5,181 nt of DNA from a virus (Duplodnaviria; Heunggongvirae; Uroviricota; Caudoviricetes): IMG/VR virus record IMGVR_UViG_2778261227_000008; one strand, 5' to 3'. The translations under genes were made by a program, and so were the position numbers. Below the pieces are notes generated by a model. That model had not been told where the DNA came from and did not search any database. It was given only the letters and a program-made list of their open reading frames with translations. Every line of letters begins with the position of its first letter. Within the stretch, counting starts at the first letter, position 1. Shown one piece after another: positions 1 to 4,356 of this stretch.

Positions 1-558
1 CGCTGTCTGCAACGGCACGCCATTTGCCTCACTGGCCGGAGCACTCTCGCGCACGCGCGCGTTATGTGTGGGGTTTAATTCTTTATCTGTATCTTTATCT
101 GTCGTGACTCGTCGTGACATGTCGTGACATATGCGTGACTCGTCGTGACACCCCTCATTCTGTTTTCGTAATTTTTCCCTCTCGCGCTGCGCTCTCTTGC
201 GCTCTGCCGGGGATTTCGCGGTTTGTGAAACGTTGCCATTGTCCTCTTTCAGTACCTGGCGTTTTTCCCATCCAGTGATTAAATCTCCATCAAGTACCCG
301 CCCCTGCATTGCCTGTAAAATTGAATCAATTACTTCTTCCGTCACATCAAGCGCACTTGCTAAATCTTCCGTCGTGACATCAATGTGACCACGTAGTGAC
401 ACGCCGTGACATGTCGTGACATTTCGTGACGCGCTCACCAGAAGGTGGATATACACAGCCATCACTGTTGCGATTGGCTGTCCTGACACCCTGGAAATTG
501 TTCGCCACTTAGGATCATTTGGCATGTCATGCCATAATCTGAGCCAGGCGTTAGCCAT
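1..558 (-). CDS. Putative phage replication initiator / replisome-organizer-like protein, N-terminal 186 codons; gene continues beyond the left edge of the window
   Basis: Hand translation of the minus strand from ATG at 558-556 (SD-like AGAGGTGA 5 nt upstream) is open for 186 codons to position 1. Not in the ORF track because there is no stop inside the window. Protein begins MANAWLRLWHDMPNDPKWRTISRVSGQPIATVMAVYIHLLVSA. It lies downstream of ydaS-ydaT, where lambdoid phages carry replication genes, and contains both iteron clusters. The family assignment is inference from position and N-terminal pattern. Confidence 0.55.
   Translation of the reverse strand, partial: MANAWLRLWHDMPNDPKWRTISRVSGQPIATVMAVYIHLLVSASRNVTTCHGVSLRGHIDVTTEDLASALDVTEEVIDSILQAMQGRVLDGDLITGWEKRQVLKEDNGNVSQTAKSPAERKRAQREREKLRKQNEGCHDESRICHDMSRRVTTDKDTDKELNPTHNARVRESAPASEANGVPLQTA
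101..150. repeat. Iteron cluster A: five copies of (G)TCGTGAC(A/T) at 10-11 bp spacing
   Basis: Read directly: gtcgtgactc / gtcgtgacat / gtcgtgacat / atgcgtgact / cgtcgtgaca, with GTGAC cores at 104, 114, 124, 135 and 145. An adjacent tandem repeat ctttatctgtat-ctttatctg lies at 81-101. Confidence 0.8.
371..430. repeat. Iteron cluster B: six copies of a GTGAC-core decamer at 10-11 bp spacing
   Basis: Read directly: GTGAC cores at 374, 385, 396, 406, 416 and 426. An inverted copy (GTCAC) is at 341-345. Confidence 0.8.
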
Positions 559-1382: not shown

Positions 1383-1445
1383 AGTTTAGTGTTTAATAAA
1401 CCATTAAGTCAAGTATTTGCTTGTTTAGTGATTACTAAAGATAAT
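1383..1445. promoter_or_regulatory. Divergent promoter/operator region between ydaS and the repressor gene
   Basis: Minus-strand promoter candidate: -35 TTGACT (rc of 1407-1412), 18-nt spacer, -10 TAAACT (rc of 1383-1388). Plus-strand candidate: -35 TTGCTT 1417-1422, 17-nt spacer, -10 GATAAT 1440-1445. The 11-bp palindrome GTTTA-A-TAAAC at 1391-1401 lies in the minus-promoter spacer. Direct repeats GTTTAGTG(T/A)TT at 1365-1375, 1384-1394 and 1423-1433. Elements read by eye, not scored. Confidence 0.5.
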
Positions 1446-1451
1446 TACCAC

Positions 1452-1823
1452 ATGCAAAAAAAAGAAATTCGCCGTTTACGTCTCAAGGAGTGGTTTAAAG
1501 ATAAAACTCTGCCACCCAAAGAGAAGAGCTACCTATCTCAACTAATGAGTGGGAGAGCCTCGTTTGGAGAAAAGGCTGCCAGAAGAATAGAGCAAACATA
1601 CGGGATGCCGGAAGGGTATCTGGATGCGGAATACGCAGAACAACCGGAGGTTTCTCCACCACATGCAGGGTTAACGTCTAATCAACTGGAATTATTGCAG
1701 ATTTTTTCAGCCTTCCCTGAGGATGAGCAACGCCAGATAATCAGCGAGTTAAAGCAGAAAAAAGAATCAATGGAAGACCTCATAGCGAGATGGATTGCGG
1801 CGCAAAAATGCCGCCGCGCCTGA
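1452..1823 (+). CDS. paaR2: HTH transcriptional regulator of a three-component toxin-antitoxin operon, 123 aa; occupies the prophage repressor position
   Basis: ATG at 1452, in frame within track ORF 1389..1823; the GTG at 1389 has no SD. XRE-like segment EKSYLSQLMSGRASFGEKAARRIEQTYGMPEGYL. It is divergent from the Cro-like gene and followed by an antitoxin-toxin pair. Identified as paaR2 from memory of the E. coli O157:H7 paaR2-paaA2-parE2 system; paralogue number not verifiable here. Confidence 0.65.
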   Translation: MQKKEIRRLRLKEWFKDKTLPPKEKSYLSQLMSGRASFGEKAARRIEQTYGMPEGYLDAEYAEQPEVSPPHAGLTSNQLELLQIFSAFPEDEQRQIISELKQKKESMEDLIARWIAAQKCRRA

Positions 1824-1843
1824 GTTATAAAACCGGAGGAAAC

Positions 1844-2035
1844 ATGAATAGAGCCCTTTCACCAATGGTTTCTGAGTTTGAAACCATTGAACAAGAAAAC
1901 AGTTACAACGAATGGCTGCGTGCGAAAGTAGCAACGAGCCTTGCAGATCCGCGCCCAGCAATTCCTCATGACGAAGTTGAGCGCAGAATGGCAGAACGCT
2001 TTGCTAAAATGCGCAAGGAACGGAGCAAGCAGTAA
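1844..2035 (+). CDS. paaA2: Small antitoxin, 63 aa (PaaA2-like)
   Basis: ATG at 1844 with SD GGAGGA at 1835-1840, in frame within track ORF 1790..2035. Product is MNRALSPMVSEFETIEQENSYNEWLRAKVATSLADPRPAIPHDEVERRMAERFAKMRKERSKQ. Its stop is 1 nt before the toxin start. Size and position fit the antitoxin of the ParE2 system, as recalled. Confidence 0.7.
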   Translation: MNRALSPMVSEFETIEQENSYNEWLRAKVATSLADPRPAIPHDEVERRMAERFAKMRKERSKQ

Positions 2036-2036
2036 A

Positions 2037-2315
2037 ATGTTACCCGTATTATGGCTTGAAAGCGCAGATACCGACTTGGATGATATAACTGGTTATATTG
2101 CTCGTTTCGACATAGATGCGGCAGAACGCTTATGGCAGCGATTAAGGGGTTGTGTGCTGCCGTTATCCGAACACCCGTATTTATACCCACCAAGCGACAG
2201 GGTGCCTGGCTTGCGTGAGATTGTGGCCCACCCTAACTATATAATTCTATACCGCGTAACAACATCAAGCGTTGAAGTAGTAAACGTGATCCACGCAAGA
2301 CGCCAGTTTCCCTAA
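2037..2315 (+). CDS. parE2: RelE/ParE-superfamily toxin, 92 aa (ParE2-like)
   Basis: ATG at 2037, in frame within track ORF 1941..2315. C-terminal pattern YIILYRVTTSSVEVVNVIHARRQFP is typical of ParE/RelE folds. Tightly coupled to the upstream antitoxin. Confidence 0.7.
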   Translation: MLPVLWLESADTDLDDITGYIARFDIDAAERLWQRLRGCVLPLSEHPYLYPPSDRVPGLREIVAHPNYIILYRVTTSSVEVVNVIHARRQFP

Positions 2316-3820: not shown

Positions 3821-4119
3821 ATGATTTCCTTGGATCGTTGGGGATATCCAGATTATACAGATTTCTTGTCGTTGGGGAATGACAGGAACCACCTCGCCTG
3901 ACGTGGTTAAAAGCAGGCACACAACACGAAAGCGCACGGCGAAGTCATTTCTCCCTCTGTTGCGTGTCGCCGGTATCTTCGACCGTGCGCTTCCGGTTGT
4001 GGCACTCCGCGAAATGGCGCGGCGGTAAGTATGGCGGGGTTATCCTTACCCCCACTGGTAGCACCGGGTTGTCAGGTTGACCATACGCCTGAGTGACAAC
4101 CCCGCTACAACACTCCATG

Positions 4120-4176
4120 TTGATTTGTACCTTTGGCGGCATCAGTTTCATTGCTGGCTGATGTCCCCCCTTTTTA
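4120..4176 (+). ncRNA. dicF: DicF-like small RNA with terminator-like 3' hairpin and U-tract
   Basis: Sits directly upstream of dicB as in the Qin dicB operon. Segment TTTGGCGGCATCAGTTT matches my recollection of E. coli K-12 DicF (TTTGGCGGTATCAGTTT). Stem CATCAG/CTGATG extended by G-C pairs and followed by CCCCCCTTTTT (4165-4175). 5' boundary is estimated; the 5' portion differs from K-12 as I recall it. Confidence 0.5.
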
Positions 4177-4178
4177 AA

Positions 4179-4340
4179 GTGAATTTTGTGATGCGGTGAA
4201 TGCGGCTGAGCGCACGCGGAACAGTTAAAAAGCGATTAGTTCCCCCGTATCGGGTGTTTATGGGTTTCCCTGTATCCGGCGTTAATTGTTAACTGGTTAA
4301 CGTCACCTGGAGGCACCAGGCACCGCATCACAAAATTCAT
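4179..4340 (+). other. 20-bp long-range inverted repeat bracketing the dicB leader
   Basis: GTGAATTTTGTGATGCGGTG at 4179-4198 is the reverse complement of caccgcatcacaaaattcat at 4321-4340 (19 of 20, the last pair G-U in RNA). The 3' arm ends 4 nt before the dicB SD (GAGGA 4345-4349). Confidence 0.6.
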
Positions 4341-4356
4341 TGTTGAGGACGCGATA

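Follow-up and report, generated by a model that had tools for sequence, protein, structure and literature searches.

The window analysed here, a stretch of 5181 nucleotides from a Caudoviricetes virus (IMG/VR record IMGVR_UViG_2778261227_000008), covers the early region of a lambdoid Escherichia coli prophage, with the closest matches in strain RM8082 (98%) and STEC711. At its left end, at positions 1-558 on the minus strand, lies the 5′ part of a gene for a replication initiator of the family that is named 'phage replisome organizer' at NCBI. The ATG is at position 558 and the 186 codons in the window run off the left end, while the gene has 346 codons in its closest relatives. The product shows strong matches to PHROG families annotated as replication initiation proteins. 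The DnaT-like part of the gene lies outside the window and was read from a full-length relative (L002:3518-4558), in which a DnaT domain (PF17948) covers amino acids 201-267 with an E-value of 2.4e-17. In relatives the gene is followed by that of a 153-residue lambda-P-like helicase loader (PF06992, E 2e-14), and in other genomes by a DnaC-like loader, a DnaB helicase or a primase-helicase gene. On the upstream side, in minus-strand order, come the cro-like ydaS (1354-1052) and ydaT (1055-630), the cII equivalent. After these two genes and before the P-like loader, the initiator gene occupies the position of lambda O.

Inside this gene, the initial annotation had reported five and six GTGAC-core repeats at 10-11 bp spacing and about 220 bp apart, within an open minus-strand frame, flanked by a short AT-rich tandem and imposing a periodic peptide (VTT and CHD motifs). 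All of these observations were recovered. Cluster A (101-149, minus strand) holds five GTCACG cores with a spacing of 10-11 bp and an extended form GTCACGAC; on the plus strand its GTGAC copies lie at 104, 114, 124, 135 and 145. Cluster B (371-430, minus strand) holds six GTCAC cores on the gene strand with the same spacing, corresponding to plus-strand GTGAC copies at 374, 385, 396, 406, 416 and 426. The gap between the arrays is 224 bp. A lone reversed core (341-345, plus strand) that reads GTGAC on the gene strand and encodes the peptide D-V-T is found about 31-33 bp past the last direct repeat of cluster B. Tandem Repeats Finder returned period-10 arrays at 101-149 and 396-430 as well as a 12-bp tandem of 1.9 copies at 80-102, and a separate repeat search joined both arrays as one family of seven copies.

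The total number of GTGAC words in the window is not striking (15 against 8 expected, and 3 of 200 shuffles get to 15); this count was dropped as uninformative and phased-chain and hexamer tests were used instead. Copies of a single 5-mer that lie 9-12 bp apart form chains of up to six and five members, while the maximum in 1000 dinucleotide-preserving shuffles was four, which was reached once. The hexamer GTCACG on the gene strand occurs nine times, every copy within the two arrays, compared to 1.9 expected, and none of 200 shuffles reached nine.

The arrays encode the periodic peptides SRNVTTCHGVSLRGHIDVTT and CHDESRICHDMSRRVTT. Depending on the frame, of which all three are used, the same DNA word encodes VT(T), CHD or SR. 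Within cluster B, a 21-bp insertion (plus strand 394-414; two repeat units, seven codons, TCHGVSL) accounts for two extra cores over the usual four. At the edge of this cluster, window positions 333-383 contain a direct repeat, CTTCTTCCGTCACATCAA and CTTCCGTCGTGACATCAA, 33 bp apart and coding for DVTEE and DVTTED, which may be a trace of core duplication and inversion.

Directly after the last core of cluster A lies an AT-rich tract (74-103, AGATAAAGATACAGATAAAGAATTAAA) that is purine-rich on the gene strand, includes the 12-bp tandem and is proposed to act as DNA-unwinding element. No other 30-mer of the gene is less stable. In the window as a whole the tract ranks in the top 0.3%, and the 30-mers that are even less stable are at gene boundaries or within other genes. 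Family-wide, the corresponding tract in relatives consists of (AGATAA)n or (AGATAC)n after cluster A, coding for DKDKDK or DTDTDT. The tract is directly followed by a GC-rich, partly palindromic block (31-61, with CGCGCACGCGCGCG at 48-61) that belongs to the C-terminal module. This block is among the most stable ones (-51.9 compared to a window mean of -39.9), and a stem is listed in it. It may be a clamp that bounds the unwinding region, or merely code for a proline linker. At the same place many relatives (e.g. L094, L099, L102 and phita81A) carry CCCCCYTANCCCCCC, coding for PPLPP or NPPYPP, or a short inverted repeat, for example cccacctcac...ggtgggtgag.

The order of these elements closely matches that in lambda, and the gene positions of the repeats are nearly equal. 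Here the cores cover gene nucleotides 410-455 and are followed by a tract with 73% AT and 70% purine, and in lambda the iterons cover nucleotides 349-433 of O and are followed by a tract with 76% AT and 69% purine. Repeats inside the gene, an adjacent AT-rich tract and a loader gene downstream are the features of a lambda-type architecture, which is meant here in terms of function, not homology. The entire 40-kb genome of phage Evi has a density of four or more cores per 60 bp at the two arrays only, and no second origin-like cluster was found elsewhere in that genome. Neither a DnaA box nor an IHF consensus was found in the region.

The protein consists of a winged-helix N-terminal domain, a disordered linker and a DnaT-like C-terminal domain. 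In the AlphaFold2 model, a confident helical and winged-helix domain spans amino acids 1-100, with a lower-confidence loop at amino acids 46-62. A basic helix (amino acids 117-137) and a disordered tail follow, and the linker has a predicted local distance difference test score (pLDDT) below 50. The predicted helix-turn-helix and wing are encoded at 271-372 (minus strand, amino acids 63-96) and a basic 'arm', AKSPAERKRAQRERE, at 175-219 (minus strand, amino acids 114-128). Cluster B encodes the loop at amino acids 43-62 between helices 3 and 4 of the N-terminal domain, which is variable in length and of lower confidence, and cluster A encodes amino acids 137-152 in the disordered linker. Because of these locations, both protein regions can tolerate a sequence that is dictated by the DNA. 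Across the family, the cluster B loop is longer where repeats were gained (L114, L127, L111 and Firinga).

No Pfam or NCBIfam model scored above threshold in the N-terminal 160 residues of the window protein or of any of 58 relatives. The Phage_rep_O model (PF04492), which lambda O itself matches with an E-value of 6e-36, was unmatched by the window protein, the full-length relatives and all 58 family members. With hhalign, the family profile gave a probability of 0.1% against lambda O and likewise 0.1% against SPP1 G38P. Homology to these two proteins was dropped on the basis of the negative Pfam and hhalign results. Membership of Phage_rep_org_N was also dropped since the scores stayed under the threshold: the best was that of the phage Evi homologue, with 12.8 against a cut-off of 23.3 bits for PF09681 and 15.5 against 49.8 bits for TIGR01714, and this family was not among the top families for any of the 58 members. 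Pfam RepA_N (PF06970) gave no match, and its fold score was not above that of generic CRP-type winged helices. A sequence search of the PDB returned a C-terminal DnaT match only. Remote links were found to phrog_4880 ('replisome organizer', E 4e-5) and phrog_10469 (E 2e-7).

A search of 5.8 billion proteins with the N-terminal domain alone gave 917 homologues. They occur in prophages of E. coli (among them elements of the O157 CP-933P type), Shigella, Pseudomonas, Aeromonas, Bordetella, Burkholderiales, sphingomonads and others. Six phage loci, 80 close viral contigs and 74 genome loci, the latter from gamma-, beta- and alpha-proteobacteria and a few others, were read as DNA. Every homologue with at least about 55% identity has GTCAC in two arrays, at gene nucleotides 129-160 (four copies) and at about 387-430 (three to five copies). 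Two arrays at homologous gene positions are present in 52 of about 70 loci. In 38 distinct architectures the spacing is 10 bp in 162 cases and 11 bp in 30, with a mean of 10.17, and the distance between the clusters ranges from 200 to 360 bp (median 258). Among about 60 homologous loci, cluster A with the AT tract is near-universal and cluster B keeps its gene position in most. The copy number of cluster B varies from 2 to 6. Two loci, L136 (a Serratia metagenome-assembled genome) and L151 (Pantoea), have the same N-terminal domain fused to another C-terminal part, YVYYVATTDGDVVRVGISRNPWAR..., with CTACG/CGTAG repeats in place of the usual arrays and no DKDK tract after them. They may represent a different use of the N-terminal domain.

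We also compared synonymous constraint across homologues, a check that the initial annotation had proposed. Among 22 diverse genes, one codon is used 98% of the time at conserved residues in cluster B cores compared to 52% elsewhere (Mann-Whitney p = 5e-6). The fixed core codons include GCG-TCA for Ala-Ser, GTC-ACG for Val-Thr and GGT-CAC for Gly-His. In the reversed core (Asp-Val-Thr), which is kept in the DNA alignment, Val is encoded by GTG in 19 of 19 diverse homologues. Spacers and flanking codons, on the other hand, drift freely, while the word is kept across bacterial classes. Within E. coli the same was observed: among 36 distinct alleles, polymorphism at third codon positions affects 4 of 19 core sites compared to 80 of 141 sites outside the cores, and no cluster B core is variable. 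The arrays are therefore conserved as DNA and not as protein, and the cores are under purifying selection. An iteron-type theta origin is expected to have multiple direct repeats of a single word that are selected as DNA, and such repeats are present here.

In homologues below about 55% identity GTCAC is gone and another word, CGAACGC(A), GCAACG, GTAACG or TGACGC, occupies both positions with unchanged 10-bp phasing. All core words have ACG in common, preceded by a variable triplet. The G after GTCAC is present in 86% of the cluster B copies and 87% of the cluster A copies, and cgAACGCa is found in both arrays. On a neighbour-joining tree of the N-terminal domain, built with the loop masked, the core type shifts at several places, towards GTCAC in L114, L129 and L156 and away from it in L124, L109 and L112. 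The change is concerted: it is present in both arrays wherever both exist, L129 having cluster A only. In L156, cluster B has GTGACG and cluster A GTCACG. The core type is also associated with a protein segment. A basic segment behind the wing reads AKSAAERKREQRERE in loci with GTCAC cores and SAERAKAWRE in those with AACGC-like cores, and the motif RK[RNA].QR is found in 27 of 28 GTCAC-class loci and in 0 of 33 AACGC-like loci, a count that ignores phylogeny. This makes the basic arm a candidate specificity determinant, rather than a finding.

Module exchange was observed at the AT tract. Megablast similarity of the window to phages Evi and Tritos and to many E. coli prophages breaks at position 80, inside the tract, and the C-terminal domains of the Evi-type phages are DnaD-like, not DnaT-like. 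Conversely, phage pPE4 (Actinobacillus-labelled, L163) has only positions 1-94 of the window in common; it has an unrelated N-terminal domain with its own repeats and AT tandem, and this chimera joins the C-terminal domain of the window within its own AT tandem. Since the breaks lie at the AT tract in both the Evi-type phages and pPE4, the inherited unit is the N-terminal domain together with its arrays. The tract is a recombination joint for the exchange of N- and C-terminal modules, and the C-terminal domain matches whichever loader or helicase gene comes next, be it P-like, DnaC-like, DnaB or primase-helicase. Hybrids of lambda O follow the same modular logic. It is also seen in the Rep proteins of pSK41 and pPR9 (PMC5703833).

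We consider it likely that a lambdoid prophage of the CP-933P type has its vegetative replication origin here, inside the gene of its own initiator, and that cluster B is an auxiliary array. The O position, the unstable AT tract at cluster A, the frozen synonymous sites and the co-variation of core and protein all support this. They also support the initial annotation, which proposed an origin contained in its initiator gene like that of lambda O. The resemblance to lambda is best described as an analogy, not as membership of the lambda O family.

In the mechanism that we infer, transcription from a pR-like promoter would yield the initiator and the P-like helicase loader. The N-terminal part of the initiator, a DnaD/RepA_N-like winged helix with its basic arm, would bind the GTCACG words. 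With one word per 10-11 bp, the bound protomers would all lie on the same side of the helix and be packed into a tight array. The array on cluster A (101-149) could then cause the purine-rich AT tract (74-103) to melt, aided by supercoiling and transcription, after which the DnaT-like C-terminal domain and the P-like loader would deliver the host DnaB helicase to the melted region. Cluster B probably serves as an additional array for binding of the initiator; most likely it would raise the local occupancy of the initiator or bridge to cluster A in a larger origin complex. Looping, cooperative loading, autoregulation and titration are all roles that it may have.

Several observations weigh against this interpretation. 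In the literature on this family we found no experimental report of replication, binding or melting, and the prophage itself may be defective. The flanks are degenerate at the two extra cores of cluster B in the window. The association between arm and core disregards phylogeny, the arm is physically near cluster A, and L111 is discordant. No convincing helical phase between the clusters was detected (resultant 0.45 at 10.0 bp and 0.23 at 10.5 bp, n = 25, with several periods tried). Furthermore, cluster B is absent from the distant members L121, L141, L143, L145, L153, L154 and L157, and in the Lysobacter locus L159 the second array is located elsewhere, in an N-terminal insertion at nucleotides 66-113. 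That array has six GCGTCAC repeats with 9-10 bp spacing, encodes the peptide CVTSVTSVTNVTV and is oriented opposite to the cluster A of the same locus; it looks like a separate gain of a second array at another site. Because it is missing in several distant homologues and lies elsewhere in L159, cluster B is not essential to the design, and it appears to be an accessory array for the same reader that was gained or kept repeatedly.

This distribution also bears on the best-surviving alternative, which is possible but clearly less likely than the reading above: cluster A and the AT tract would be the whole origin and cluster B a control element that acts by autoregulation, titration or 'handcuffing'. 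Initiator bound in the 5′ part of its own gene would then block transcription, or be titrated to limit firing. The near-universal presence of cluster A and the tract, compared to the lineage-restricted cluster B, would fit this explanation, and so would the conserved reversed core at cluster B and its variable copy number. No comparably unstable AT tract adjoins cluster B. The reversed core recalls the inverted-repeat operators of iteron plasmids, and in P1 and F a second set of iterons (incA and incC, respectively) titrates or 'handcuffs' the initiator. However, there is no obvious need for negative copy control in a lytic phage origin, and a consensus scan gave no promoter at cluster B. Moreover, the data equally fit a cooperative or looping role, and the control element is compatible with an auxiliary array in all but the sign of its effect.

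More speculatively, and in our view rather doubtful, the words could form an evolvable code of the type N3-ACG, in which the invariant ACG is read by the winged helix and the variable triplet by the basic arm (amino acids 114-128). The origin would then be obligately bipartite, and either looping or a continuous protein scaffold would pair its two arrays so that initiation is fired or limited. Under such a code, selection would force both arrays and the arm to switch together.

It is improbable that the repeats are the sites of another protein, either a host factor or another phage regulator. The N-terminal domain does lack a validated DNA-binding family assignment, which leaves room for such a reader. 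However, across lineages the core type goes together with a segment of this very protein, and the arrays move with the N-terminal domain when C-terminal domains and neighbouring genes change. In addition, upstream regulators and downstream loaders differ among loci with the same core, and the consensus sites of DnaA and IHF are missing from the region.

An explanation without any function at the DNA level, in which the repeats are a feature of the protein or arose by replication slippage where the loop and linker tolerate it, is already strongly disfavoured and very unlikely. The arrays do encode low-confidence or disordered regions and their copy number varies, as the 21-bp insertion illustrates. 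Against this stand the frozen synonymous positions of the cores, the reading of the word in three frames, its retention across bacterial classes while spacers drift, and the joint switching of both arrays. Least credible of all is a partition (centromere-like) or packaging site, since the similar anatomy of plasmid R1 parC (two sets of five 11-bp repeats, about one helical turn each, bound by ParR) is offset by the lack of partition genes in the window or neighbouring loci and of a ParM/ParA-type partner in complete phage genomes such as Evi, by the lifestyle of these elements, which are integrating lambdoid prophages with integrase and excisionase, and by the location of the arrays in a replication gene beside an AT-rich tract and a helicase loader.

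Among known systems, the origin of lambda (PMC7466680) closely matches the putative origin in layout. The initiator gene of lambda, and also that of the Shiga toxin (Stx) phages 933W and P27, contains the origin in its middle, and the repeats are followed by an AT tract that is purine-rich on the coding strand, as is the case here. The N-terminal part of lambda O confers origin specificity and its C-terminal part meets the helicase loader, which is the division proposed for the present initiator. A P-type loader gene is next in both, and in both the gene comes after cro and cII equivalents, with a pR-like promoter, a candidate in the present prophage, for its transcription. The number of repeats is variable, with four in lambda, six in the Stx phages and three to five here. 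The lambda iterons, however, are 18 bp long with internal dyad symmetry and lie 20-24 bp apart, whereas the words described here are direct, 6-8 bp long and recur every 10-11 bp; a set of at least four ~18-bp dyad iterons of the lambda O type is not present in the gene. The initiator has no sequence similarity to lambda O, its C-terminal domain is DnaT-like, unlike that of lambda O, and lambda has no second array in the region coding for the N-terminal domain.

A second parallel is provided by the RepA_N plasmid initiators (pSK41 and pTZ2162), which, like the N-terminal fold of DnaD, can be likened to the initiator described here. In pSK41 the winged-helix N-terminal domain binds Rep boxes located centrally in rep, and the middle part of the protein, which is encoded by the ori, is a dispensable linker (PMC5703833, PMC7145576). 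The C-terminal domain of RepA_N initiators is specific for the host or partner, and natural chimeras exchange the N-terminal domain together with the ori (PMC5703833, PMC7145576). Their boxes are longer and semi-palindromic around an A-tract, pSK41 has one set of boxes, and the hosts of the present family are Proteobacteria. In phage SPP1, oriL lies inside gene 38 and consists of boxes bound by G38P with an adjoining AT-rich unwinding element, and oriR is a further, remote site to which G38P binds (PMC5737612). Gene 38 precedes the genes of a helicase loader and a helicase, just as the present gene precedes that of a loader. G38P carries Phg_2220_C, which is absent from the present protein, and the second site of SPP1 is elsewhere in the genome whereas here it is about 220 bp away within the same gene.

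Two sets in cis of the same short initiator-binding repeat are also known for P4 alpha (ori and crr), P1 RepA (incC and incA) and F RepE (ori2 and incC). The second set is needed for firing in the case of P4 crr, or controls initiation by titration and pairing in P1 and F. These clusters flank the rep gene or are kilobases off and are non-coding, whereas here both are coding and one lies within the sequence of the DNA-binding domain itself. In the literature on the iterons of this family, on CP-933P and on the replication regions of non-lambdoid Stx phages, we found no account of this origin.

Origins inside initiator genes are textbook knowledge for lambda, SPP1 and pSK41, and no concept is overturned by our proposal. 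New are the family itself, the very short repeats of one helical turn, the second array in the loop of the DNA-binding domain and the visible co-switching of word and protein segment. If the proposed origin is correct, an origin and initiator specificity would be assigned to a widespread, uncharacterised replication module. The locus would also be a natural example of a DNA signal that overrides codon choice and dictates a peptide in the loop of a folded domain. An initiator and its sites would be seen switching specificity in step, with a 15-residue segment that could be swapped to probe specificity. Replication incompatibility and cross-activation of co-resident prophages would be predicted, and the AT tract would be marked as a recombination joint that builds chimeric initiators. 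Should the more doubtful N3-ACG code apply, it would be a natural re-programmable pair of initiator and origin, partly written inside the coding sequence of its own reader.

The remainder of the window is consistent with a lambdoid early region. In the position of cI lie the three genes of a PaaR2-PaaA2-ParE2 toxin-antitoxin/repressor module (1452-2315, plus strand), in which PaaA2 matches PF21217 (E 1e-19) and ParE matches PF05016 (E 4.5e-16). Further plus-strand genes are those of DUF1391 and dicB. A consensus scan returned a pR-like sigma-70 promoter candidate upstream of ydaS (1383-1412, minus strand), from which ydaT and the initiator gene would be transcribed as well. The ydaS/ydaT junction (1045-1062) carries the YdaT operator OM, TTGATTTTCATGAATCAA, as a perfect match, and because of it the immunity region was identified as CP-933P-type. 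It is the sole perfect site in the window, and the motif is not found between the two clusters. OM was footprinted in CP-933P (PMC9986795). Immunity regions of this type were studied in PMC8630535 and PMC9986795, and the gene order here is as in PMC8630535; on replication, both papers say only that the replication initiation genes come after ydaT.

Rfam and tRNA scans of the window gave no match. Upstream of dicB there is a non-coding stretch of about 450 bp (3900-4350) for which Rfam returned no family, DicF included. This stretch contains an inverted repeat formed by AATTTTGTGATGCGGTG (about 4183-4199) and CACCGCATCACAAAATT (about 4320-4336).

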